Part shown: positions 10,764 to 59,040 of the stretch, piece by piece
Layout of the letters: every line of letters begins with the position of its first letter
Position numbering within the stretch: the stretch's first letter is position 1
Assembly (NCBI GenBank): GCA_031272275.1
Contig: JAISUC010000012.1
Span: forward strand, 2,052 to 66,051
Direction: 5' to 3'
Source of the DNA: Actinomycetes bacterium
GTDB lineage: Bacteria; Actinomycetota; Coriobacteriia; WRKU01; WQUG01
DNA: 64,000 nucleotides
Made by a program: the position numbers and the translations under genes
Notes under the pieces: model-generated
Told to the model about the DNA's origin: nothing
Seen by the model: the letters and a program-made list of their open reading frames with translations, nothing else
The model's database searches: none

Positions 10764-11121
10764 CCTTGAAACCAAACCGTCGATAGGTTACAGTAGGCAG
10801 GTATCGTTGAAATCGCTTTTCGGTTTCGCCTGCGTGCCGCGGTCGAGCTGTCGCCGGACGGCGCGCGCGAACTAAGAGGGAAGCAGGTGCAAGACCTGCG
10901 CAACCCCCGTTGCCGTAAGTGGTGATGATCCGTGCAGTTTGCCACTGGGGCGCGTTGTCCCGGGAAGGCGCGCGGTATCACATGACCCACAAGCCGGAAG
11001 ACCTGCCGAAAAGCCTCGAAGTATCTGTCTTTCGGCGGGAAAGACCGGGCTGTCCTGAGGTCGATCGCAATCAGGCGCATTCCAGTTCTGACTCCGTCGC
11101 GGACGCGAAGGAGGAACACAG

Positions 11122-12714
11122 ATGCTATACAGAAAGCACAACAATCGGGGGAGTCGGATGTCGGCACCCGGGTTTGTCCTGCACGGTTTGCGGGCACCGC
11201 ACGACGGGCGTGTTCCCGTGATGCCCGTGCGGTCTGTGTGGCGCATGCGGCCCGTGCGGCGGGCCGCCGCGAAACGAGCCGCCGTGGCACGGGTCGCCGC
11301 AGCCTGCGTGCTGTTGGTGTGCGTGGTGTGCGTGGCGGGCGCGATGGGAGCCGCGCCGACATCCGCGCATGCCCGGACAGCAGCGGCCACCGAGTGGGGC
11401 GGATACCGCCGCACGGCGGCAAACAGCGGGGTCACGGCGGCAAAAACCCCGACGTCAAAATCTCGTACGAGGCTGAAATGGTCGCGCAAGCTGGTTGCCG
11501 GCGGTGGCTGGGACGTGCGCGTCTCGGCGCCCATCATCGTGCGTGGCAAGGTGTTCATCGCGCGCAACAATCAGCTGTTGCGCTATAGCAAATCCGGCAA
11601 ACTGGAGAAAACCGTCACCCTGGCGGCACCAATCGGCTATACCTGTTATCCCGGCAGCGGCGACGGCAAGCTGTTCATCCCGCTGGACGGCGGGCGCATC
11701 CAGGCCCTGAGCGCCGCCACCATGAAAAGCAGCTGGGTCAGCGTGTCCGCCAGCATCTCTGCCACCGACACCGCGCAGAGCACTGGCACGGTCACCTATC
11801 GCGCAGGCTACCTGTACAGCAGCTGGGTGCGCGGTGGTGCCACCCCGACTGCCGGCGCGGTGGTCTGCTATAAAACGTCGGCCGGCAGCAACATTGATTC
11901 CGACGGCTACAAACGCCCCGTTTGGACCCACGCCGTCGCCCTGCCGGAAGACGGCGGCACGACCGCCGCCACAACCGCCGGCTACTACAACACCGGCATC
12001 GCGCTGACCCCGAAAGCGGCGCTGTTCGCCGGCGAAGACGGCGTCCTGACCTCGGTCGCGCTGAAAACCGGCAAGGTGCTGTCGACAGTCAAACTGAAAG
12101 CGCCCGTGCGCAGCGCCGTCCTGTTCGTGTCCACCGGCATGGGCTCGACCGGCGTGGCATACGTGTCGACCGCGAACAGCACGACCAACACGGGCAAAAT
12201 CTGGCGCGTCCCGGTCACAAAAACGGGCAAACTGTCCGCCGCTCGGGCCAAATCGGCGAAACTGTCCGCAGGCCCCGGCACTACGGCGCCTGTGCGCTAC
12301 AACAACAAACTGTACGTCGTCAGCGGACAGTCGGGTTTCGCGGCGGGCACGGCCACCGGCACGGGCAAACTGGACACTTTCAACGCGACCACGCTGAAGC
12401 ACAAAAGCACCGTCGACCTGGGCGGTTTCAGCCAGTCCTCGCCGCTGCTGTCGAAAGCACAGGCCACTAAACGCAACGGCAAACGCGCCTATCTGTACGT
12501 CACGCTGAATGACACCACAGACACCATCAAAGTCATCCGCGACAGCGCCAAACAGAAAAAACCGACCGTCGCCACCTTGGCAAAACCGGGTGGCAGCTAT
12601 TCGATGGCCAGCCTGATTGCCGACAAATCGGGTACGCTGTATTACACGTCGTCGGTGACCGACCCGGCGACCTGGTCCACCGACGTCTACCTGCAGGCTC
12701 GCGCGCGCAAATAA
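11122..12714 (+). CDS. Secreted/membrane-anchored PQQ-like beta-propeller repeat protein
   Basis: GAAGGAGGAA RBS. Hydrophobic segment AAACVLLVCVVCVAGAMG. Repeated (G)DGKLF.PLDGG...AL.A.T....W type propeller blades. Gly/Thr-rich. Confidence 0.6.
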   Translation: MLYRKHNNRGSRMSAPGFVLHGLRAPHDGRVPVMPVRSVWRMRPVRRAAAKRAAVARVAAACVLLVCVVCVAGAMGAAPTSAHARTAAATEWGGYRRTAANSGVTAAKTPTSKSRTRLKWSRKLVAGGGWDVRVSAPIIVRGKVFIARNNQLLRYSKSGKLEKTVTLAAPIGYTCYPGSGDGKLFIPLDGGRIQALSAATMKSSWVSVSASISATDTAQSTGTVTYRAGYLYSSWVRGGATPTAGAVVCYKTSAGSNIDSDGYKRPVWTHAVALPEDGGTTAATTAGYYNTGIALTPKAALFAGEDGVLTSVALKTGKVLSTVKLKAPVRSAVLFVSTGMGSTGVAYVSTANSTTNTGKIWRVPVTKTGKLSAARAKSAKLSAGPGTTAPVRYNNKLYVVSGQSGFAAGTATGTGKLDTFNATTLKHKSTVDLGGFSQSSPLLSKAQATKRNGKRAYLYVTLNDTTDTIKVIRDSAKQKKPTVATLAKPGGSYSMASLIADKSGTLYYTSSVTDPATWSTDVYLQARARK

Positions 12715-17988: not shown

Positions 17989-18055
17989 GCGCGCGCATAC
18001 GGGATTCGGTTCCGGATTCGGTTCAAGACCCGGTTCAATAACCGGTTTGAACGAA

Positions 18056-18100
18056 GGCCCCGCAGATAACGCGGGGCTTTCTTTTTGCTTTCTTTTTTAT
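18056..18100 (+). terminator. Rho-independent terminator (GCCCCGC-agataac-GCGGGGC plus T-tract)
   Basis: Read directly. Preceded by GATTCGGTTCC direct repeats and a GGTTCAA/TTGAACC IR at 18001-18050. Confidence 0.65.
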
Positions 18101-31191: not shown

Positions 31192-31323
31192 ACGTACGCG
31201 ACGGTTAAACGCGAGTTACCATAATGCCACCACAAGGGGGTCCACGTCAAGAACTTTTTTTCCCAACTCGAATTCAGGGCTTGCGTCCATGCTTGCGGGT
31301 CCTGTGGGCAGCATCCACCGATG

Positions 31324-31460
31324 CCATTGCGAGGGCGGCGGTTTTTGCCGCCCGCGGCAATACAGCGTGTGTGTGACATCACCCCGCGAACGTCATTGCG
31401 AGTGTTGCGTTCTTTGCGACACGCGGCAATACATGCGGGGCGGGTGGACACCCGCCCCGG
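31324..31460 (+). repeat. Two tandem family 2 REP-like units (CCATTGCGAG-GGCGGCGGTTTTTGCCGCCC-GCGGCAATAC ... CATCACCCCGCGAACGTCATTGCGAG...GCGGCAATAC) followed by a perfect GGGGCGGGTG/CACCCGCCCC hairpin
   Basis: Read directly. Homologous to 1973-2049, 3803-3838 and 50551-50595. Confidence 0.6.
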
Positions 31461-31607
31461 ATCAATGACTCGGATGCGCATTCTTGCACACACCTAGGCT
31501 TTGGGTCTCGATTGCCGGACGCCCCGTAGCGCGCCACTCTTGTGGCACCGTCGAGCGCCGGATCCTGATGGACTTCGAGTTTAAGAAAGTCTTAAGAAAG
31601 ATTTAAG

Positions 31608-31640
31608 CCCCCCTTAAGGAAACCTTAAGGGGGGTTTTCT
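31608..31640 (+). terminator. Strong rho-independent terminator (12-bp stem CCCCCCTTAAGG / CCTTAAGGGGGG, loop AAA, then TTTTCT)
   Basis: Read directly. No annotated plus-strand gene lies upstream of it. Confidence 0.6.
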
Positions 31641-31703
31641 ATCATCGCCTCTGCGAACAGACACCGAACGTGTCGACCGACCGTAACGACCGAACGTGGC
31701 CGA

Positions 31704-44970: not shown

Positions 44971-45342
44971 ATGTCTGAGGTTGAAAGCTATAGCGAGGCG
45001 AAAGAGCAGTTGGATGCGATTGTGGCGGAGGTCCGCAAAAAGGACGTACCGCTGGAGCGCAGTCTGGACCTGCTGGAAGAAGGCGTTCGTTTGGCGAATC
45101 GCTGCACCGAGCTGATTGATCGCAGTTCCTGGGAGGCAGCGGACTCGGTTGAAGACGCTGAATCCGACGGAACCGCCGAGGCCGGCGGGGATGCCGACGG
45201 CGAAGTGGCAGCCGATACGGATGGCGGGGCGGCACCCGCGGCAGAGGCACAGACGGAAACAGACGAGGGGACGTACTCCCCCACAGATACGGATGAGGAC
45301 GTGACGGATGAAGCTGCTGGATCGGATACAGAGTCCGCGTGA
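44971..45342 (+). CDS. xseB: Exodeoxyribonuclease VII small subunit with an acidic C-terminal tail
   Basis: MSEVESYSEAKEQLDAIVAEV...PLERSLDLLEEGVRL is the XseB pattern. AAAGGAA RBS. Confidence 0.8.
   Translation: MSEVESYSEAKEQLDAIVAEVRKKDVPLERSLDLLEEGVRLANRCTELIDRSSWEAADSVEDAESDGTAEAGGDADGEVAADTDGGAAPAAEAQTETDEGTYSPTDTDEDVTDEAAGSDTESA
45268..45282 (+). repeat. Family 1 15-mer GGGACGTACTCCCCC inside the xseB tail / 26 bp upstream of the dxs start
   Basis: Read directly. Confidence 0.6.
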
Positions 45343-48881: not shown

Positions 48882-50495
48882 GTGATACTCGAAACGCTAC
48901 ACGTCCGCGACCTGGCACTGATTGACGAGGCCTGGTTGGAGCTGGGACCGGGGCTGACCGCGCTCACGGGTGAAACGGGCGCGGGCAAAACTGTGCTCCT
49001 ATCCGCCTTGGCCCTGCTTTTGGGGGAGCGTGCCGACAGCTCCCTGGTGCGTGCGGGCGCCGATGCAGCCCGTGTCGAGGCTCAATTCAGCGATGGCATG
49101 GTGGCGGCGCGCCGTATTTCGGCCGACGGTCGCGGTCGCGCGACCCTCAATGGCGAGATGACAACCGTGGGCGCCTTGGCACAGGCGACCGGACCTTTGA
49201 TTGACCTGCACGGACAGCACGACCATCAGGCACTGATGCGTCCCGCCGCACACATTGAGTATCTGGATCGCTGGGCGGGGGCGGCCGTGTCGACTTTGCT
49301 CGCGGTCTATCGCGATGCACGTTTGACCTGGCAGGCGGCCGCACAGGCGGTTGCCGATATTCAGGCCGCGCGTGACCGCGATGCAGAGGATCTGGAAATG
49401 GGCCGTTTGGCACTGGCGGAAATCGAACGCATCGACCCGCTGCCGGGTGAAGACGATGATCTGCGCGCGCGCCTGCCCATGCTGGAGCATGCCGAGGAAC
49501 TGGCGGAGCATACCCGCACGGCGCTTGATGCCCTGCGCACCGAAGGTGGCGTGCTGGAATTATTATATACGGCCGACGCCGCGCTGGAACGCGCATCCGG
49601 CATGGACGAAGCCTTGGGCGAGCTCCGCGAGCGCATGGCAGAGGCACGCGGGGACCTGGAGGGCTTGGCCGACGCGCTGGCCGATTACCACACACATATC
49701 GAACACGACCCCCAGGCACTCACCGCTGCGTTCGAGCGCCTGGCGGAACTGGAGGGCTTGTGTAAGCGTTTCGGCCCCACGCTGAATGCCGTGCTTGAAC
49801 GCCGTGACAGCTTGCTGCGCACGGCGGATATGACTGAAAACGTCGAGGAACGCCTGGCACAGGCACGCGCCGCCGAACAGCAGGCACGCGACGAGCTGAC
49901 GGACGCGGCGGCCGGGTTGACGGCGGCACGACGTGCGGCGGCCGATTCTTTCATTGCGGCGCTGACGGATGCGGCGGCCGACCTGCAGCTAGGTCAGGTG
50001 ACCTTTACGGTTGACATCGCGGCGCGTCCGTTTGATGCCTGGACGGCAGACGGTGCCGACAAAGTCGAGATACTGTATGCGCCGTCCCCGCAAACGCCTG
50101 CCCGCCCGTTGGCGAAAATCGCGTCGGGTGGGGAAATCAGCCGCGTGATGCTGGCGCTGAAAAGCGTGTTCGGACAGGCGGACGGCAGACCGATTCTGGT
50201 TTTTGACGAGATCGACGCCGGTATCGGCGGGGCGGTGGCGACGGCCGTGGGCGCAAAGCTGAAGCAGCTGGCACAAACCCATCAGGTCATCGTGGTCACC
50301 CACTTGGCACAGGTGGCGGTCTATGCAGATGCGCAATTGCGCGTCAGCAAACAGGCTGGTGACGCCACCCGGACTATAGTCGAGCCGGTCACCGGGGCTG
50401 CGCGCACCGCAGAGATCGCCCGTATGCTCTCGGGGAGCACCGATACCGTGGCATGTGCACACGCCACAGAACTGCTCCGCAACGCCACGACCTGA
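48882..50495 (+). CDS. recN: DNA repair protein RecN
   Basis: N-terminal Walker A LTGETGAGKT. Long coiled coil. C-terminal signature and Walker B LVFDEIDAGIGG. GTG start. Confidence 0.95.
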   Translation: MILETLHVRDLALIDEAWLELGPGLTALTGETGAGKTVLLSALALLLGERADSSLVRAGADAARVEAQFSDGMVAARRISADGRGRATLNGEMTTVGALAQATGPLIDLHGQHDHQALMRPAAHIEYLDRWAGAAVSTLLAVYRDARLTWQAAAQAVADIQAARDRDAEDLEMGRLALAEIERIDPLPGEDDDLRARLPMLEHAEELAEHTRTALDALRTEGGVLELLYTADAALERASGMDEALGELRERMAEARGDLEGLADALADYHTHIEHDPQALTAAFERLAELEGLCKRFGPTLNAVLERRDSLLRTADMTENVEERLAQARAAEQQARDELTDAAAGLTAARRAAADSFIAALTDAAADLQLGQVTFTVDIAARPFDAWTADGADKVEILYAPSPQTPARPLAKIASGGEISRVMLALKSVFGQADGRPILVFDEIDAGIGGAVATAVGAKLKQLAQTHQVIVVTHLAQVAVYADAQLRVSKQAGDATRTIVEPVTGAARTAEIARMLSGSTDTVACAHATELLRNATT

Positions 50496-50550
50496 GCCCC
50501 GTCCTCGGCGACGCAAACCTACCACGGTCACCGGCGACGCAATCGCCCAC

Positions 50551-50649
50551 CGTCATTGCGAGCGGCGCGAAGCGCCGCGCGGCAATCCATCACGGCACGA
50601 CCGCTCGTGCCGTGTCGTTCAGCGGATGCGCTTTTGCGCATCTCCCACT
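50551..50649 (+). repeat. Family 2 REP-like unit (CGTCATTGCGAG-CGGCGCGAAGCGCCGCG-CGGCAATCCATCAC) followed by two perfect hairpins (CACGGCACGA/TCGTGCCGTG and GATGCGC-TTTT-GCGCATC); probable recN terminator region
   Basis: Read directly. Confidence 0.55.
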
Positions 50650-50807
50650 GTTAAAACGATGTTACAGCTGCCCGGAATACTCGCATAATACAGCATGCAC
50701 CTGCGCCGTCGCGTGCTAGAATAACTCGAAGCGTACCCCTTCTTGATACACGTCTTTACGTAATATTTTACAAGGAATATGCATATTTTCTGAATAGATC
50801 CAGCTAG

Positions 50808-50822
50808 GGGACGCACTCCCCC
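50808..50822 (+). repeat. Family 1 15-mer GGGACGCACTCCCCC about 35 bp upstream of the ureA promoter -35
   Basis: Read directly. Confidence 0.7.
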
Positions 50823-50855
50823 GGGTTGTTATAGAAATATTCCGAAAAAATAATA

Positions 50856-50884
50856 TTGACAAAATATTTGTAAACCGATATTCT
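50856..50884 (+). promoter_or_regulatory. Sigma-70-like promoter for ureABC: TTGACA - 17 bp - TATTCT
   Basis: -35 at 50856-50861 and -10 at 50879-50884, in an AT-rich region. AAGGAAAGGAG RBS before the ureA ATG. Confidence 0.55.
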
Positions 50885-50967
50885 GCGGTAGTTCCTTATT
50901 GAAAGGAGGCCCTATAGAAGAGCCGAAAGTGGATCTGTGACAGACAACCAAGGAAAGGAGTTAGGAA

Positions 50968-51276
50968 ATGCGTTTGAATCCGAAAGAAATCGAGAAGCTG
51001 ATGCTGCACAACGCCGGCGAACTGGCGAAGCAGCGCAAAGCACGCGGCCTCAAGCTCAACTACGTGGAGGCTGTTGCTCTCATCAGCTCCGAGCTCATCG
51101 AGTACGCGCGCGATGGCAAGAGCGTATCAGACCTGATGGAGCTTGGTCGCCAAATCCTGACTGTCGACGACGTCATGGACGGCGTGGGCGCCATGATTCA
51201 CGAGGTCCAGATCGAGGCTACGTTCCCCGACGGAACCAAGCTGGTCACCGTTCACAACCCGATTGCAGAGAAGTAA
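50968..51276 (+). CDS. ureA: Urease gamma subunit
   Basis: [40 protein letters not shown] is canonical UreA. Confidence 0.95.
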
Positions 51277-51342
51277 ACGGGTCCATCGTGACTATGTGTT
51301 ATCCGCACTGTGTACAGTACTCAATGAACAAGGAGGCTTGAT

Positions 51343-51705
51343 ATGATTCCTGGAGAAATCCTCACGAAAGAGGGGAACGTCGAGCTCAATGCCGGTCGCG
51401 CGACCGCAGAGATCAAGGTTTCCAACACGGGTGACCGTCCTGTCCAGGTCGGTTCGCACTATCACTTCTTTGAGGTGAACAAGCGCCTGTCCTTCGATCG
51501 CGAAGCAGCGTTCGGCAAGCGCCTCGATATCCCGTCAGGGACTTCGGTCCGTTTTGAGCCGGGCGAGACGAAGACGGTTGTTTTGACGGAACTGGGTGGA
51601 CGTCAGCGTAGCTATGGTCTGAACAATTTGACCTGCGCGCAGGCTGTTCCCGCATCCGCCGCAGCCGCTCTTCGCGTTGCTGGCGAAAAAGGCTTTTTGG
51701 GTTAA
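51343..51705 (+). CDS. ureB: Urease beta subunit
   Basis: [11 protein letters not shown]...NAGR...[13 protein letters not shown] is canonical UreB. Confidence 0.95.
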
Positions 51706-51716
51706 GGAGGACAGCA

Positions 51717-53438
51717 ATGGCAAAGAAAATCACACGTAAAGAGTATGCTGCAATGTACGGTCCGACCGTCGGCGACAAGGTCCGTTTGGGTAACACCGAC
51801 CTGATCGCCGAAGTCGAGATCGACTACACCACTTATGGCGACGAGGCCAAGTTCGGCGGCGGCAAGACGCTGCGCGACGGTATGGGCCAGTCCGCCAACA
51901 CGACCAGCGCGGACGGCGACCTGGACTTGGTCATCACCAACGCGTTGATCATCGACTACACCGGCATCATCAAGGCCGACATCGGTATCAAGAACGGCAA
52001 AATCGCCGGTATCGGTAAAGCCGGTAACCCCGACATCATGGACGGCGTCACGCCGGGCATGGTCGTCGGTGCCTCGACCGAGGCGCTGGCAGGCGAGGGT
52101 CTGATTGTGACTGCCGGTGGTATCGACACGCACATCCACTTCATCAGCCCGCAGCAGATCGACACCGCGCTGTTCAGCGGTGTGACCACCATGATCGGTG
52201 GCGGAACCGGTCCGGCGGATGGCACCAACGCCACCACCTGCACCCCGGGTCCGTGGAACACCGAGATGATGCTGCGCGCCGCCGAGGCCTATCCGATGAA
52301 CCTGGGCTACCTGGCCAAGGGTAACTCCTCCGCCGTCGCCCCGTTGATCGAGCAGGTCAAGGCCGGATGCATGGGTCTGAAGTTGCACGAGGACTGGGGT
52401 TCAACCCCGGCCGTCATCGACGCCGCGCTGACCGTGGCCGACGAGTATGACGTCCAGGTTGCAATCCACACCGACACCCTGAACGAGGCCGGTTGTGTTG
52501 AGGACACCATCGACGCCATCGCGGGTCGTGTCATCCACACCTTCCACACCGAGGGTGCCGGCGGCGGTCACGCACCGGACATCATCACCGCTGCGGGTTA
52601 CCGCAACGTGCTGCCTTCGTCGACCAACCCGACGATGCCGCACACCGTCAACACGCTGGATGAGCACATGGACATGCTGATGGTCTGCCATCACCTGGAC
52701 AAGTCCATCCCCGAAGACGTTGCGTTCGCCGACTCGCGCATCCGTCCCGAGACGATCGCGGCCGAAGACGTCCTGCATGACATGGGCATCTTCAGCATGA
52801 TGAGCTCCGACTCGCAGGCCATGGGCCGCGTCGGTGAGGTCATCACCCGCACCTGGCAGACCGCCGACAAGATGAAAAAGCAGCGCGGCATTCTGCCCGA
52901 GGACAGCGCAGCCAACGACAACTATCGTATTAAGCGCTACGTGTCCAAGTACACGATCAACCCCGCCATCACCCACGGTATCGCCGATTACGTCGGTTCC
53001 GTCGAGGGTGGCAAGTACGCCGACCTGGTCCTGTGGAACCCTGCGTTCTTTGGTGCCAAGCCCGACATCATCATCAAGGGCGGCGCCATCATCGCCAGCA
53101 AGATGGGCGACCCGAACGCCTCGATCCCGACGCCGCAGCCGGTCTTCTATCGCCACATGTTCGGTGCCGACGGTACCGCCGTCGAGTTCACCTGCATCAG
53201 CTTCGTGTCGAAGGCCTCCATCGATGAGGGCATCGTCGAGAAGTACGGTCTGAAGAAGATCGTCCTGCCGGTCACCGGTTGCCGTGACATCACCAAGTAC
53301 GACATGAAGTACAACGATGCCACACCGGTCATCGACGTCGACCCCGAGACCTATGCGGTTTCGCTGGACGGCAAAAAGCTCGAGACCTACCCCGCGGCCG
53401 AATCGCTGCCGCTGACGCAACTCTACAGCCTGTTCTAG
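51717..53438 (+). CDS. ureC: Urease alpha subunit
   Basis: Canonical UreC nickel-site motifs, including AIHTDTLNE and GGGHAPD. Confidence 0.95.
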
Positions 53439-53448
53439 GATGTGAGGA

Positions 53449-53479
53449 CCTCCGGGTTTATTGTCTCCAAACCCGGAGG
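53449..53479 (+). terminator. Hairpin CCTCCGGGTTT-attgtctcc-AAACCCGGAGG immediately after ureC (terminator/attenuator-like, no T-tract)
   Basis: Read directly. Confidence 0.4.
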
Positions 53480-53548
53480 TCGCTTGCGGGCATTAAGGGA
53501 GGCCTGTGCACCGCGTGCACACGTAGCTTTATGGTTAGACGCACGGGT

Positions 53549-53597
53549 CCGGTCGGCGCGAGACATGATTGTTGCCGACCGGGCTCTGCTTTTTCGG
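53549..53597 (+). terminator. Terminator-like hairpin CCGGTCGGC...GCCGACCGG followed by GCTCTGCTTTTTCGG, within the amt 5' leader
   Basis: Read directly. Preceded by the 17-bp perfect palindrome TGTGCACCGCGTGCACA (53505-53521). Confidence 0.45.
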
Positions 53598-53614
53598 TAG
53601 CGCAAGAAAACAGC

Positions 53615-53629
53615 GGGGGAGTACGTCCC
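53615..53629 (-). repeat. Family 1 15-mer (reverse form) forming the loop of a hairpin with stems GCGCAAGAAAAC (53600-53611) / GTTTTCTTGCG (53633-53643), about 70 bp upstream of the amt start
   Basis: Read directly. Confidence 0.7.
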
Positions 53630-53711
53630 TGCGTTTTCTTGCGGACTGCAGCCGATACGGATGCCACTGGCGTGGCACGGTTGCAGTCGAGCATAAGAAA
53701 GGAAAGAATAC

Positions 53712-54956
53712 ATGGAGAACGCCGGCTCGCTGAGTTTCATGTTGCTCTGTTCTGCGATGGTTTTGCTGATGACCCCCGGTCTGGCCTTTTTCTACGGCGG
53801 ATTGGGCGAGCGCAAAAACGTCGGTAGCAATATGATGAACTCGATATTCGCCATGGGAATCGGTATCCTGATGTGGGGTTTGGTGGGATACAGCCTCTCA
53901 TTCGGCGGAGATGGTCTGTTCATTGGTTCTTTAAAGCACTTTGCGTTCCTGGGCATCAACACAGAGTCCATGACCGGGGATATCCCGACCTATGCCTTTG
54001 CGATGTTCCAGATGATGTTCGCCCTGATTACCCCGGCCATTATTACCGGTTCGATTTCGGGGCGCATGAAGTTTAAGGCGCTGCTGCCCTTTGTGGCGCT
54101 GTGGTCCTTGATCGTCTATTACCCCATGGCGCACATGGTCTGGGGTCAGGGCGGTCTGCTGGGTACCGGTTGGCTGGATTCGATCGACTTTGCGGGCGGG
54201 AACGTCGTGCATATCGCATCCGGTGTGTCGGGTCTGGTGCTGTGCCTGCTGTTGGGCAAGCGCAAGGGCTATGGCGAGAAAGAGCACGCAGCCTACAACA
54301 TTCCGTATGTCGTTCTGGGAACAGGACTTCTGTGGTTTGGTTGGTTTGGTTTTAACGCCGGCAGCGCGCTGGCAGCAGACGGTTTGGCTTTGCATGCCGC
54401 CGTGGCGACCGCCATTTCCAGCGGTACGGCTATGGTGTCCTGGATGGCGATGGATGCCATTTTCGAGGGCAAGGCGACGTTGGTGGGTGCCTGCACCGGT
54501 GCGGTTGCCGGTCTGGTCGGTATTACCCCCGGCGCCGGTTTTGTGCCCATCTGGGCAGCCTTCATCATCGGCTTGGGTGTCAGCCCGGTGTGCTTTTTTG
54601 CCATCAAGCTGATTAAGGACAAGCTGAAAATTGACGACACCTTGGACGCATTCGGCTGCCACGGAGTGGGTGGAATTTTCGGCGGTTTGATGACGGGAAT
54701 CTTCGCTTCGCCGGCTGTCAACGAGTTTTCGGGAGTCATTTACGGCAATTGGGGACTCCTTGGGCGGCAGGCAATTGCAATAATTATTTCAATTGTCGTC
54801 GCCGTAGCCGGAACGTTAATATGCGCCGGCATCGTCAGAATATTCACAAAGCTTCGTGTCGAGGACGAGCATGAAGAGGCCGGCCTGGATCTGTCGCTGC
54901 ATGGGGAAAACGCGCATTCTTTCTCGATGCCTGCACTGGAAGAGGCCAATCAGTAA
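53712..54956 (+). CDS. amt: Amt/MEP-family ammonium transporter embedded in the urease cluster
   Basis: LMTPGLAFFYGGL... Amt signature. 11 TM helices. Conserved twin-His region. Confidence 0.85.
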   Translation: MENAGSLSFMLLCSAMVLLMTPGLAFFYGGLGERKNVGSNMMNSIFAMGIGILMWGLVGYSLSFGGDGLFIGSLKHFAFLGINTESMTGDIPTYAFAMFQMMFALITPAIITGSISGRMKFKALLPFVALWSLIVYYPMAHMVWGQGGLLGTGWLDSIDFAGGNVVHIASGVSGLVLCLLLGKRKGYGEKEHAAYNIPYVVLGTGLLWFGWFGFNAGSALAADGLALHAAVATAISSGTAMVSWMAMDAIFEGKATLVGACTGAVAGLVGITPGAGFVPIWAAFIIGLGVSPVCFFAIKLIKDKLKIDDTLDAFGCHGVGGIFGGLMTGIFASPAVNEFSGVIYGNWGLLGRQAIAIIISIVVAVAGTLICAGIVRIFTKLRVEDEHEEAGLDLSLHGENAHSFSMPALEEANQ

Positions 54957-55201
54957 AGTAATTTCCGGTTCCGGGATCTCGGTGGGGTGACTGGGGTCCC
55001 GGAATTCGGAAACACGGATGTAACAATTATATTTATTGAAACATAATTACAACTTTGGATTGTATTTCGGCAACTTGATTTTGTAATTAATTGACTTGAG
55101 TGTAAAGCGGGTTTATAGCGTATTATCACTGTCGTAGCGGCCGGGTCGCGGGGACCGGGCCTTCAAACCCTCCGGTATACAACCGGTGTGAAGAAAGGAT
55201 T

Positions 55202-55921
55202 GTGAGGCGCATGATTGTCTCAGAACCGATTGGTAGGGCTGATGAGGAACGCTTTGGCGAATTGGTCGCCGACCCCGTTCACATCGAGTGGTATAACACG
55301 CAAAAGGCTGTTGACGTGCGTCGTTCCTCCAAAGGAACTGAAATCGGTCTGCGCCCGAATGAGGACACTCTGGCGCGCGGGTGGTATCAGGGCGACGTGC
55401 TGTATGCCGATGACGAGGTCTGCGTCATGGTTGTCATCGACGCCGGCGACTGCATCGCCATCAGCGCACCCGATGCCGAAACGATGCTGCCCGCGGTTTA
55501 TGAAATCGGCAACCGCCACGCACCGCTGTTTTCATCCGCGGGAAATCTGTTGCGCTTGTTGACCCCGTACGAGGAACCGCTGATGCGTCTGCTGGCAAAG
55601 CTTCCGGTGTCCGTAGAGCGTTGCGAAGACTACCTGTTGGCGGAGTATCGGATTTCGAACACCAAAGGGCATAGCCACGCACACGATGACGGCGGCTATG
55701 ACGGACATGGTGGGGCGCCCGATGCGCAGTTTTATGCAGAAAACGGATCCGGGGATGCGACAGCGGATGCGGACGATGTGCATAATCACGAACCTGCTGT
55801 GCATATTCACGAACACGGTCACGGCGGTCATGACCACGGGCACAGCCACAGTCACGCGCACGACCATGACCGGGAACACGGCCACCTGAATCACAATCAT
55901 TCGCACGGATGTGGGGAGTAA
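55202..55921 (+). CDS. ureE: Urease accessory metallochaperone UreE with His-rich C-terminal tail
   Basis: YEIGNRHAPLF motif. C-terminal HEHGHGGHDHGHSHSHAHDHDREHGHLNHNHSHGCGE. GTG start with AAAGGA RBS (alternative ATG at 55211). Confidence 0.85.
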   Translation: MRRMIVSEPIGRADEERFGELVADPVHIEWYNTQKAVDVRRSSKGTEIGLRPNEDTLARGWYQGDVLYADDEVCVMVVIDAGDCIAISAPDAETMLPAVYEIGNRHAPLFSSAGNLLRLLTPYEEPLMRLLAKLPVSVERCEDYLLAEYRISNTKGHSHAHDDGGYDGHGGAPDAQFYAENGSGDATADADDVHNHEPAVHIHEHGHGGHDHGHSHSHAHDHDREHGHLNHNHSHGCGE

Positions 55922-55923
55922 TC

Positions 55924-56643
55924 ATGACGCAGACTTTCTTGCTGTTGCAAATCAACGACGCCGCCTTCCCGGTGGGAGCCTTTACCCATTCCTTCGGGCT
56001 GGAAACCTATATTCTGGACAAGAAAATCCCCGATGCGGATGCCGCATTGCGCTACATCACACAAAACCTCTTCGGCTCGTATCTGTATTCGGATCTGCTG
56101 CCGGTGAAACTGGCGTGGCAGGCGACTCGCACGGGCAATCTGAACGATCTGGTCAAGCTCGAAGAGCTGCTGTATGCCTCGCGCTCGCCGCGCGAGACGC
56201 GCGAGGCCCAGTGCAAGCTGGGCAACCGTTTCGCCAAGGCCGCCCTGCTGTTGGACGGAGAGGCCGACGGCAGCGTGGGTCGTGACGGCGGCGACGCGCC
56301 CGAGGCCAGTTTCTTTGCACGTTACCTGGATGCGGTGGGTCGCATGGCCTCGCGTCCGGTTGCCTATAGTGTTTTTTGCACGACGCACGACATCGTCTTG
56401 AACGACGCCTTATCCAGTTACCTCTATGCACATGTCTCCAGCATGGTGACTTGCTGCTTAAAGACCGTACCCCTGAGTCAAACGGACGGCCAAAAGATTC
56501 TCGACCGGATTCGACCGCGTTATCCCGAGCTCTTGGCTGCTCTGGAGAACCTGAACGAATCGGATCTCGCACGGTCATGCCCGGGATTAGAGCTGCGTTC
56601 CATGCAACACGAGCGGCTGTATTCCCGCATGTATATGTCCTGA
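55924..56643 (+). CDS. ureF: Urease accessory protein UreF
   Basis: LLLQINDAAFPVGAFTHSFGLETYI is the UreF N-terminus. GGGGAG RBS. Confidence 0.85.
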   Translation: MTQTFLLLQINDAAFPVGAFTHSFGLETYILDKKIPDADAALRYITQNLFGSYLYSDLLPVKLAWQATRTGNLNDLVKLEELLYASRSPRETREAQCKLGNRFAKAALLLDGEADGSVGRDGGDAPEASFFARYLDAVGRMASRPVAYSVFCTTHDIVLNDALSSYLYAHVSSMVTCCLKTVPLSQTDGQKILDRIRPRYPELLAALENLNESDLARSCPGLELRSMQHERLYSRMYMS

Positions 56644-56682
56644 CAGGCTAGAAGGCGAAGTAGAGTAACGGAGGTTGTAAGT

Positions 56683-57294
56683 ATGAGGAAGTATGTAAAG
56701 ATCGGTGTAGCAGGTCCCGTGGGGTCCGGGAAGACCGCCTTGGTGGAAATCCTGACGCGACGCATGTCCGGTGACTATAGCATTTGTGCGGTTACCAACG
56801 ACATCTACACCAAAGAAGACGCCGAGTTCCTGGCAAAGAACAGCGTCCTGCCCAAAGAACGCATCCTGGGCGTGGAAACCGGCGGCTGCCCGCACACCGC
56901 GATTCGCGAGGATGCCTCGATGAACATCGAGGCGGTCGAGGAACTGGCCGAGCGTTTCCCCGATACGGAAATCATGTTCATGGAAAGCGGCGGCGATAAC
57001 CTGTCGGCAACCTTCAGCCCCGAGCTGGCCGACGTCACGATTTTCGTCATCGACGTATCCGCCGGAGACAAGATCCCCCGTAAAGGCGGTCCGGGTATCA
57101 CGCGCAGCGATCTCTTGGTGATTAACAAGATCGACCTGGCTCCCTACATCGGCGCCAGCTTGGAGGTCATGGATCGCGACGCACGCAAGATGCGCGGTGA
57201 CAAGCCCTTTATTTTCACCAATATCAAGACCGGCGAAAACGTTGATCAGGTCATCGACTGGATCAAAAAGAACGCTCTGCTGGAAGGGGTTTAA
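56683..57294 (+). CDS. ureG: Urease accessory GTPase UreG
   Basis: [18 protein letters not shown]-loop. ESGGDNL. CPH nickel-binding motif. Confidence 0.95.
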
Positions 57295-57369
57295 GTACCG
57301 TGTCTGCCAATAAACTTTGGCCGCAAAAGTGAACTGAAGCTGGGAATCGTCGCAGGCGAACAGCGTTCG

Positions 57370-58131
57370 TTGGCACGCGATATTTCCTTCACCTCGCCCT
57401 TTAAGATCACCCACCCCTTCTATGAGGAGAAAACCGGGTTGCTGCGTATCATGACCATCGCGGTTGCAGCCGGTATCATGGCTGGTGATGCGCAAGACAT
57501 TGAAATCAGTGTCGGCACCGGTGCCGAGGCCGAGGTATTCAGTCAGGCCTTTGAGAAAATCCACAAAATGGAGGACGGTCAGTACGCGACACGCGACACG
57601 CACCTGATTGTCGCCTCTGACGCGCGGCTGATTTACGCCCCGCTGCCGGTCATTCCTTTCGCCGCATCGGATTTCCGCGGCGAGATGGTGGTGGCACTGG
57701 CGGACGACAGCTCGCGCCTGTTGCTGAGTGACGTGGTGACATCCGGACGTGTTGCCATGGGCGAATCGTTCCAGTACCACTCATTCCGCAATCGCACGCG
57801 CATCTATCGCGCAGGCGATTTGATCTACAACGACAACCTGGTTATCAAACCTGCAGAACTGGGACAGGTCGGCGTGGACCCGTCTGATTTCTGCCTGTTC
57901 GAGGGCTACACGCACCAGAGTACAGTGTTGGTGGCAGATCCCGTTGTAGGCGAAGCGTTTGAAACGAAGGTCAACGAACTGCTGGCCGCTGAAGGCGAGC
58001 TGGCGGGCGCGGCAACCACGACCGGTCACGGTCTGTTGTGTGTCCGCATGTTGGCAAACGAGTCGGAACCCCTGCTGCATGCGCGCGATCGCATCAGCAA
58101 GCTGATTGATGAGATGACGGAAGCACTGTAG
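57370..58131 (+). CDS. ureD: Urease accessory protein UreD/UreH (N-terminus probably longer, see findings)
   Basis: UreD-like. The in-frame region upstream (57304-57369) encodes UreD-like N-terminal residues but has no ATG/GTG. Only TTG at 57370 or CTG at 57304/57334 are available as start codons. Confidence 0.75.
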   Translation: MARDISFTSPFKITHPFYEEKTGLLRIMTIAVAAGIMAGDAQDIEISVGTGAEAEVFSQAFEKIHKMEDGQYATRDTHLIVASDARLIYAPLPVIPFAASDFRGEMVVALADDSSRLLLSDVVTSGRVAMGESFQYHSFRNRTRIYRAGDLIYNDNLVIKPAELGQVGVDPSDFCLFEGYTHQSTVLVADPVVGEAFETKVNELLAAEGELAGAATTTGHGLLCVRMLANESEPLLHARDRISKLIDEMTEAL

Positions 58132-58202
58132 AGCGATGTATCAGCTGACGCGGAAAAATTCCTGGGAGGGGGGGGCTCATAGAGCGCTTTTCGCGCGCGC
58201 TG

Positions 58203-58409
58203 CTACAGTTCGTCCCCCTCATCGGGGAGAATCAGGCTGTCCATCGTCACGCCATACAGGCGTGACAACAGGTAAAAGGTCTTTGTAGATGGATTGGTCC
58301 TCCCAAATTCCGCGTTCGCCAAAGAGGCTTCGGTTATACCGACCTTCGCGGCAACTTCGCGCCGGGTCATTCCGGCAGCCTTTCGGGCTTCAAGCAGTAA
58401 TAGGCGCAT
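58203..58409 (-). CDS. XRE-family HTH transcriptional regulator (68 aa)
   Basis: MTRREVAAKVGITEASLANAEFGRTNPS helix-turn-helix. Confidence 0.7.
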   Translation of the reverse strand: MRLLLLEARKAAGMTRREVAAKVGITEASLANAEFGRTNPSTKTFYLLSRLYGVTMDSLILPDEGDEL

Positions 58410-58590
58410 TGCGCCACATCCTCTCTTGTCACTCGCAGCACAAACTCGTGAGTTATTCTATCGGTTCTGTCCTGTATAAGCAACAAGAAACTTCGAGAAA
58501 GAATCTTTCACAAGCGAAACAGGGCATTGTAATTACCGATCAGCTCTACATCCATAAGCACGCTGCCGAGAAAGGAATAAGGAGGGACAC

Positions 58591-58824
58591 GTGTATCTGA
58601 ACAACCTGAAATCCCTGCGTTTGCTGCGGGGGGCGACCCAAGTCGAGGTCGCAGAAGCCCTGAATGTGGCACTGGCGTCCTATGGGCGCTGGGAACGAAT
58701 GGAATCAAACCCGAGCCTGACTCATCTGGTCGAGCTGGCTCAGTATTTCGAAGTACCTATCGAAGAGCTCTTTCATGCCGAGGAAACGGATCGCCTCTCC
58801 ACTCCGTTCCTTTTGGCGGGCTAA
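58591..58824 (+). CDS. XRE-family HTH transcriptional regulator (77 aa), divergent from the previous gene
   Basis: GTG start preceded by AAGGAGGGA. ATQVEVAEALNVALASYGRWE HTH. Confidence 0.7.
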   Translation: MYLNNLKSLRLLRGATQVEVAEALNVALASYGRWERMESNPSLTHLVELAQYFEVPIEELFHAEETDRLSTPFLLAG

Positions 58825-59040
58825 TCGATAGGACCATAGCGTCCGGTCGGCGGCAGCGCTTCCCTCTCCCTCAATCTTTTGTCGCTGCCGTCGACTACGC
58901 CTAGCCGCTTTGACCGGACCCGTCCGGTCATGTGCAGGGGAGAGCATACGGGAAGGCATACGCAAACGCGTAACGGAAGACCTACGCAAAGGCAAAGCGG
59001 AACGCACAGAGGAAGGCTTACAGGAAAGGGGTCACTCTGA

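Follow-up and report, generated by a model that had tools for sequence, protein, structure and literature searches.

In the 64,000-nt stretch analyzed here (contig JAISUC010000012.1, hereafter the window), which belongs to a metagenome-assembled genome (MAG) with the label 'Actinomycetes bacterium' (locus tag LBS17_; proteins MDR1775477 and MDR1775480-82), the urease gene cluster is divided by a gene for an ammonium channel of the Amt family. This amt gene lies between ureC and ureE, in the slot that in most related clusters is held by the channel gene ureI. It is preceded by a long spacer folding into four stable hairpins, which looks like a fixed internal terminator combined with a copy of a genome-wide repeat, and not like a nitrogen-sensing switch. 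Overall, we assign a probability of roughly 0.55 to the reading that amt occupies the ureI slot and that the spacer sets gene dosage by fixed partial termination or mRNA-end protection, with no sensor involved.

An amt gene in the ureC-ureE slot

Pfam and NCBIfam assignments give the gene order ureA-ureB-ureC, amt, ureE-ureF-ureG-ureD, so that the division into ureABC, amt and ureEFGD proposed in an initial annotation of this DNA is confirmed. As 9.2 kb of the urease cluster are found unchanged in a Logan assembly made independently from run SRR14710912, this gene order is not a one-off join. All genes of the cluster are on the plus strand. The ureABC block (50968-53438; Pfam Urease_gamma, Urease_beta, Urease_alpha and Amidohydro_1) is made up of ureA (50968-51276), ureB (51343-51705) and ureC (51717-53438). 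It is followed by amt (53712-54956), which encodes a protein of 414 aa, and by the accessory block (55211-58131) with ureE (55211-55921), ureF (55909-56643), ureG (56683-57294) and ureD (57370-58131).

The identity of the Amt protein was assessed by profile searches and at the level of single residues. It scores 415.6 bits on TIGR00836 (cutoff 343.3), matches PF00909 with an E value of 6e-115 over profile positions 2-398 of 399 and can be aligned over its whole length to Amt-1 of A. fulgidus and AmtB of E. coli (E ~1e-84). In E. coli AmtB, the pore and the recruitment of the substrate involve the gate residues F107 and F215, W148, S219, D160 and the twin histidines H168 and H318. All seven are kept in the window Amt according to a phmmer alignment to 1xqe, the chain numbering of which is that of mature AmtB. 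The acidic C-terminal region, which contacts GlnK in E. coli, is kept as well. Judged by profiles and residues, the protein is a canonical Amt-family ammonium channel. Nothing points to a urea carrier in disguise.

The nearest homologues of this Amt (P0002, P0003 and P0019; 66-69% identity) are encoded in amt-glnK pairs with the P-II gene directly downstream and come from other termite-gut-type bacteria, most of them low in GC. In a scan of species-representative genomes, none of the 80 amt loci with 53-60% Amt identity had urease neighbours. A tblastn search with a P-II protein detected no P-II (GlnK) gene beside amt or anywhere in the 64-kb window (best E value 1.5). The closest Amt and UreE matches belong to Endomicrobium, Fibromonadales, Spirochaetaceae and Clostridiales Family XIII, taxa typical of termite guts, and judging from these taxa the source is probably an uncultured termite-gut actinobacterium.

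Eight related urease clusters were compared (L086, L087, L208, L209, L210, L240, L241 and L242). In six of them, ureI (AmiS_UreI) is the only gene in the ureC-ureE slot, namely in L087, L208, L209 and L210 (UreE 29-33% and UreC 72-79% identical to the window proteins) and in L241 and L242 (UreC 83% and 81%). The relatives with ureI in the slot are MAGs annotated as Oscillospiraceae and Coriobacteriales, together with low-GC contigs. The Spirochaetaceae cluster L086, which has the closest UreE (44%), has an empty slot with a 26-nt spacer. The cluster with the closest UreC (83%) is L240 from a Coriobacteriales MAG (GCA_031254905.1, JAIRTN010000018.1); it contains both ureI and amt in the order ureA-ureB-ureC-ureI-amt-ureE-ureF-ureG-ureD. 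The L240 Amt is canonical too, and it is 44% identical to the window Amt. Thus, this group of gut Actinomycetota has more than one cluster with an amt gene between ureC and ureE, and these genes belong to two amt lineages, the result either of independent insertion or of displacement of one amt by another. This recurrence with two different lineages suggests, at the level of gene content, that the linkage of urease and Amt is under selection, and it lends support to the coupling of urea hydrolysis to ammonia handling that had been proposed for this locus.

The same does not hold for the long spacers. The spacers of the relatives measure 10-118 nt vs 273 and 254 nt on the two sides of amt in the window, and in L240 the spacers between ureC and ureI (21 nt) and between ureI and amt (18 nt) are both free of structure. 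The structured leader is therefore not part of a conserved urease-amt design. Among the relatives, the slot gene does repeatedly have a stable hairpin at one of its borders, with unrelated sequences: L087 has a terminator with a T4 run right after ureC, L208, L209 and L210 have hairpins at the slot-gene borders (z-scores of -4 to -7), and L240 has a hairpin followed by T5 between amt and ureE.

Structure of the ureC-amt spacer

The spacer between ureC and amt comprises 273 nt (53439-53711), in agreement with the approximate length of 270 nt given before. Its RNA fold reaches -141 kcal/mol (z = -8.3 vs 200 dinucleotide shuffles), and among the 34 intergenic regions of the window it ranks as the most structured one (z = -10.9, -0.52 kcal/mol per nt). 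Four hairpins, H1, H3, H4 and H5, fold independently of each other, each with a base-pair probability of ~1.0. All are described here for the plus strand.

H1 (53447-53481), the strong hairpin noticed earlier right after ureC, starts 8 nt past the ureC stop codon and consists of a perfect 13-bp stem with a 9-nt loop (-24.2 kcal/mol); it lacks a T-tract. Further downstream, H3 forms a terminator-like element (53541-53594), in which a 49-nt hairpin (53541-53589) of -32 to -33 kcal/mol is directly abutted by TTTTT (53590-53594). It is located 103 nt past the ureC stop on the same strand. This element, already recognized in the initial annotation, turned out to be stronger than described there: it is the strongest combination of hairpin and T-run among the intergenic regions of the window, and its geometry is like that of the clean intrinsic terminators found elsewhere in the window, at 18053-18086 (65 nt past a gene end) and 31608-31638. 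H3 thus looks like an intrinsic (Rho-independent) terminator, as predicted from its geometry and stability.

H4 (53601-53643, -28 kcal/mol) is closed by the outer stem CGCAAGAAAAC/GTTTTCTTGCG and presents at its tip GGGGGAGTACGTCCC (53615-53629), the reverse complement of a dispersed 15-mer, so that the motif itself lies on the minus strand. Its presentation in a hairpin loop had been noticed correctly. H4 is directly followed by H5 (53644-53688, -26.9 kcal/mol), which was missing from the earlier list of elements. Of these hairpins, H1, H3 and H5 each occur only once in the window. Behind H5, a purine-rich ribosome-binding region, AAGAAAGGAAAGAATAC (53693-53711), precedes the amt ATG and is unpaired with a probability of ~0.9.

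Between H1 and H3 lies the inverted repeat TGTGCACCGCGTGCACA (53505-53521), which occurs once in the window. It had been described as a perfect palindrome of 17 bp; the inverted repeat is indeed present, but it is imperfect, with 7-nt arms (TGTGCAC and GTGCACA) around a non-symmetric 3-nt centre (cgc). The corresponding 7+3+7 hairpin has a pair probability of ~0 in the RNA ensemble.

Two observations on H5 may be added. An exact 16-mer, GCAGCCGATACGGATG, is common to H5 (53648-53663) and to the part of xseB encoding its acidic C-terminal tail (45208-45223); both copies are located 20-45 nt from a copy of the 15-mer, in inconsistent relative orientation. A sigma-54 promoter within H5 was considered and rejected, as the spacing of TGGCAC and TTGCA, read from the sequence, is 3 nt too short.

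Expression of the cluster

Most likely, the leader sets gene dosage, either by partial termination of a constitutive kind or by protecting mRNA ends. Transcription would start in the AT-rich region before ureA, where the best sigma-70-like promoter of this region is found (50856-50884, plus strand, TTGACA-17-TATTCT, 10/12 consensus matches). Most ureABC transcripts would end at H1 and H3, or be protected at their 3' ends by them, which would result in an abundant ureABC message, and a fraction of the transcripts would read through into amt, with its open ribosome-binding site, and into the accessory genes. The outcome would be a fixed dosage step, with structural urease made in larger amounts than the channel and the chaperones. 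The spacer between amt and ureE would separate amt from ureEFGD by means of a further hairpin, H6, and an AT-rich block, and probably serves to re-initiate transcription for ureEFGD. As to its function, Amt would most likely recapture NH3/NH4+ that leaks after cytoplasmic urea hydrolysis under nitrogen limitation.

The amt-ureE spacer is 254 nt long (54957-55210) with a GC content of 0.465. H6 (54963-55011, plus strand, 21 bp, -34.9 kcal/mol) is positioned immediately past the amt stop and is without a clean T-tract. The AT-rich block (55012-55130, plus strand) contains the promoter-like TTGACT (55091-96) and, after a 17-nt spacer, TATAGC (55114-19). It is followed by H7, a short GC hairpin (55139-55161, plus strand, -17 kcal/mol) in the presumed 5' untranslated region of ureE. 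The AT-rich nature of this spacer, its TTGACT and its GC hairpin had all been noted at the outset. In the 8.3-kb region scanned, 10 sigma-70-like sites were detected vs 3.5 expected. They cluster in front of ureA and between amt and ureE, and none was predicted in the ureC-amt spacer, which speaks for read-through from ureABC into amt.

The AT-rich block also carries two of the three exact copies of TTGTAATTA in the window (0.08 expected), which form an inverted pair at 55044-55052 (minus strand) and 55081-55089 (plus strand); the -35-like TTGACT directly adjoins one of the two. A third copy (58527-58535, plus strand) lies in the divergent region between two XRE-type helix-turn-helix (HTH) genes (58203-58409 and 58591-58824) downstream of ureD. 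TTGTAATTA is a candidate operator for a local regulator; in such AT-rich surroundings, the chance expectation is raised.

Several points weigh against the partial termination or mRNA-end protection proposed above. Efficient termination at H3 would demand a promoter for amt, and none is recognizable in 53595-53711. The promoters of this uncultured Actinomycetota lineage may not match the sigma-70 consensus used in the scan. The efficiency of termination and the extent of read-through at H3 are predictions from sequence. Four tandem hairpins, with H1, H4 and H5 besides H3, exceed the need of a simple terminator. Finally, the locus is without a close relative (the next Amt is 69% and the next UreE 44% identical), and the hairpins are predicted from a single sequence.

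The lack of a recognizable amt promoter also bears on a different arrangement, in which the cluster would be transcribed as three units of their own. An efficient terminator, H3 by itself or together with H1, would end ureABC; amt would be transcribed from an unrecognized promoter in or just upstream of the hairpins, with H4 and H5 as stabilizers of its 5' untranslated region; and ureEFGD would be transcribed from the AT-rich spacer. The great strength of H3, the bracketing of amt by strong hairpins, H3 before and H6 (-35 kcal/mol) after it, and the clustering of promoter-like sites between amt and ureE would all fit, and a weak TGCACC-17-TATGGT overlapping the inverted repeat could be invoked for amt. 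However, a transcript started from the latter would have H3 and its T-tract at its extreme 5' end, the scan found no promoter-like hexamer pair anywhere in 53439-53711, and the 115 nt from the T-tract to the amt ATG are almost filled by H4 and H5. In L240, moreover, spacers of only 18-21 nt separate ureC, ureI and amt, which implies co-transcription there. We therefore consider three independent units unlikely.

A dispersed repeat in the leader

The 15-mer GGGACGYACTCCCCC, whose reverse complement forms the tip of H4, is present in 13 exact and 6 near copies in the 64 kb, whereas 0.35 matches with up to two mismatches would be expected. Eleven of the 19 copies are on the plus and eight on the minus strand. 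Nine of the 13 exact copies fall within the intergenic ~12.5% of the window, and the rest are found at gene ends, e.g. in the region encoding the acidic tail of xseB. Examples are the copies at 4957, 7433, 10749, 14482, 17408, 22403 (minus), 25118 (minus), 39745 (minus), 45268, 50808, 53615 (minus) and 62135. Many near-identical copies, mostly extragenic and on both strands, are what marks a dispersed repeat like the repetitive extragenic palindromic (REP) elements. From the copy number, the spread over both strands and the mostly intergenic placement it follows that H4 is the local copy of a genome-wide element and not an amt-specific operator. The protein-binding sites suggested earlier for this leader accordingly lose the loop motif as a candidate.

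The 15-mer may be a REP-like element, an uptake-signal-like sequence or a protein site. Its flanks are not conserved, the self-complementary core (GGGA/TCCC) comprises only 4-5 bp, whereas an imperfect palindrome of 20-40 nt is typical of REPs, and only 2 of the 13 exact copies are in long hairpins. One copy, GGGACGCACTCCCCC (50808-50822, plus strand), lies 146 nt upstream of ureA and 3 nt before a -35-like TTGTTA, and another one 41 nt upstream of a cobalamin riboswitch. A general tie to promoters was rejected, as a -35-like hexamer follows the motif at a distance of 2-3 nt at ureA and at the riboswitch, and not at the other copies. The 15-mer is absent from the 9-kb L240 locus, and no paper containing its sequence was found. 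Among the matches listed from metagenome and viral contigs, there were single-copy matches alone, which are at chance level and uninformative.

A repeat of this kind in the leader raises the possibility that the spacers are merely an evolutionary scar or selfish DNA, i.e. debris of a cassette swap in which ureI was lost and a foreign amt gained, later colonized by REP-like hairpins and the 15-mer without a selected regulatory role. The source of the window Amt, whose nearest relatives at 66-69% identity are amt-glnK genes of mostly low-GC termite-gut-type bacteria while the amt of the closest urease cluster is only 44% identical, would agree with a foreign gene. So would the length of the spacers relative to those of the related clusters, and H4 is not alone, as other families of repeat hairpins exist in the genome. 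On the other hand, the searches of the ure spacers returned no traces of a swap: tblastn with five UreI proteins gave no significant AmiS/UreI (PF02293) gene or remnant in the ure spacers or the window, neither P-II nor older-amt remnants were detected in the ure spacers, and the amt insertion junctions are free of terminal repeats, whether inverted or direct. Nor does amt clearly stand out as foreign by its GC content (amt 0.557, ure genes 0.565-0.617, window 0.605). The window has no second copy of H1, H3 or H5, and H3, being built in every respect like a functional terminator, would affect expression whatever its origin. Taken together, a pure scar is quite unlikely.

Is the leader a nitrogen-sensing switch?

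The initial annotation had interpreted the leader as a conditional terminator or attenuator with protein-binding sites. According to this view, a ligand or a protein would control the terminator, the inverted repeat would be the operator of a nitrogen regulator, and the expression of amt would be tied to the nitrogen status. A real terminator-like element upstream of a nitrogen-related gene, an unusually structured leader (the top intergenic region of the window) and, 20 nt before H3, an inverted repeat (7+3+7) with no second copy in the window make such an idea attractive.

The structural predictions argue against it. No Rfam family was matched in the ureC-amt or the amt-ureE spacer, either by a cmscan of 50000-59000 at E <= 10 or in a search of the window at gathering thresholds; the same Rfam library did find the cobalamin riboswitch of the window (10804-11024). 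No antiterminator fold competing with H3 was detected, the pair probability of H3 being 1.0. Before the 3' arm of H3 is transcribed, its 5' arm is essentially free and weakly paired and has no alternative helix to enter, and if the 3' arm is kept from pairing, ~28 kcal/mol are lost and no other helix forms in compensation. Small open reading frames in the spacer were inspected as possible leader peptides and discarded, as they are without plausible Shine-Dalgarno spacing.

The search for regulator sites gave a similar picture. The inverted repeat agrees with the TnrA/GlnR box TGTNAN7TNACA at 8 of the 10 specified positions, the differences being C for A5 and G for T13. Window-wide, matches to this box with at most one mismatch number 6 vs 12 expected. 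No exact box was present in any of the 81 regions upstream of amt homologues, and no box of this MerR-type TnrA/GlnR kind in the three ure spacers. Boxes for the actinobacterial GlnR (GTnAC-n6-GaAAC) and AmtR (CTAT-n6-ATAG) likewise did not exceed chance level and were absent at up to one mismatch from 50496-50967, 53439-53711 and 54957-55210. Furthermore, the leader shares no sequence similarity with the regions upstream of the 81 amt homologues. The initial annotation had itself named a lack of conserved structure in relatives as one half of what would speak against its proposal, and this half is what was found, the amt of L240 sitting in the same slot behind its 18-nt spacer without any such leader. 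With independent hairpins, no alternative fold and no known regulator boxes, neither the conditional attenuator nor the protein-binding sites could be substantiated, and we regard a nitrogen-controlled switch as very unlikely. A leader can be conspicuously rich in hairpins without being a riboswitch.

Equally improbable as a whole is a more far-reaching reading, in which urease and Amt of these termite-gut Actinomycetota would be a selected module, acquired twice or maintained by gene displacement, that exports or cycles the ammonium from urea, with the hairpins as a factor-dependent control point of an undescribed kind. If true, this could mean either energy conservation from an ammonium gradient in the manner of Ureaplasma or the directed hand-over of ammonium to the host or to a flagellate partner.

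Comparison with known systems

That urease clusters recruit transporters is known for urea channels and nickel transporters, both of which serve to supply the reaction. In the H. pylori cluster ureAB-ureI-ureEFGH, expression is shaped by differential mRNA decay and by an additional promoter in front of ureI. The window shares with H. pylori, and with the ureABC-ureI-ureEFGD clusters of relatives from Bacillota, Spirochaetota and Coriobacteriales MAGs, the position of a channel gene exactly between the gene for the catalytic subunit and ureE. Also similar are intergenic elements at the channel-gene junction that would separate structural from accessory expression, the border hairpins of L087 and L208-L210 being examples among the relatives. 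In contrast to these clusters, the window has no ureI, and the slot holds a channel of the Amt/Mep/Rh family (PF00909) instead of one of the AmiS/UreI family (PF02293), i.e. a channel for the product side and not for the substrate side of the reaction.

L240 is the closest parallel, with amt between ureC and ureE, a His-rich tail of UreE and a hairpin with a T-run inside the cluster. However, L240 keeps ureI before amt, has its terminator-like hairpin after amt, and has unstructured spacers of 21 and 18 nt and no copy of the 15-mer. The His-rich tail of the L240 UreE (L240:4943-5770), a gene that is uncalled in that record, is longer than that of the window UreE, which comprises ~80 C-terminal residues rich in His, Asp and Gly.

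With the amtB-glnK (nrgAB) operon the window shares the protein family, the pore residues and the GlnK-contacting C-terminal region, but the neighbours of its amt are urease genes and the 64 kb lack a P-II gene. As for the hairpins, operon-internal and intercistronic structures such as the rplL-rpoB attenuator and the malE-malF REP of E. coli set gene dosage. The window resembles them in having a strong intercistronic hairpin (here with a U-tract), no alternative structure and one hairpin that belongs to a dispersed repeat family. It differs from the E. coli REPs in that the 15-mer is much shorter and has a core of 4-5 bp; four hairpins in tandem are unusual, and the elements described here are known from sequence.

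In Ureaplasma, the hydrolysis of urea builds an ammonium gradient that drives ATP synthesis, and urease and an Amt-type transporter act as one physiological unit (PMC5015763). The linkage of urease with an Amt-type transporter is what the window has in common with this module, but the Ureaplasma paper does not place amt within ureABCEFGD. Energy conservation from the ammonium gradient is a feature of Ureaplasma; for the actinobacterium it is part of the improbable reading given above. In Nitrospira, amt and urease genes are located in shared nitrogen islands (PMC6311188). Apart from such general Nitrospira neighbourhoods and the Ureaplasma module, no literature report of an amt gene between ureC and ureE was found.

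Thus, an embedded transporter gene and an internal terminator are known in kind, and what is new here is a product-side ammonium channel in a slot used for supply-side channels. That two related clusters of gut Actinomycetota carry unrelated amt genes in this slot suggests selection for the handling of ammonium from ureolysis, which is relevant for the recycling of nitrogen in nitrogen-poor guts. With the window and L240 as two natural variants, the locus should also be a useful test case for the swapping of transporter genes in an operon slot.

Further features of the window

The urease cluster is preceded by recN (48882-50495; Pfam/NCBIfam) and followed by the two small XRE-type HTH genes mentioned above, located downstream of ureD. 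Antisense to ureC, a match to the Rfam family 5_ureB_sRNA was obtained (51870-52167, minus strand, 149.9 bits), the only one in the urease region. In Helicobacter, this RNA lies antisense to the conserved sequence that encodes the urease alpha subunit, and the match is probably better explained by the coding conservation of ureC than by a small RNA gene.

A second dispersed repeat has the form GTCATTGCGAG-[GC-rich hairpin]-CGCGGCAAT, with copies at 2017, 3766 (minus), 3827 (minus), 31325-31364, 31394-31433 and 50551-50590. The copies at 31325 and 31394 form a tandem pair, and the last copy lies just downstream of recN and upstream of the urease cluster.

The cobalamin riboswitch (10804-11024, plus strand, 115 bits) is located upstream of the gene at 11122-12714, with the 15-mer copy and a promoter-like TTGAAA-17-TACAGT just upstream of it. 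Besides the leader of amt, strong structure is seen in two further intergenic regions of the window. The one at 573-729 (z -8.8), which is flanked by convergent genes, contains long inverted repeats, TTAGACCGCGCTGAAC ... GTTCAGCGCGGTCTAA. The other one, at 31192-31703 (z -7.7), holds the tandem repeat hairpins together with the clean terminator at 31608-31638.

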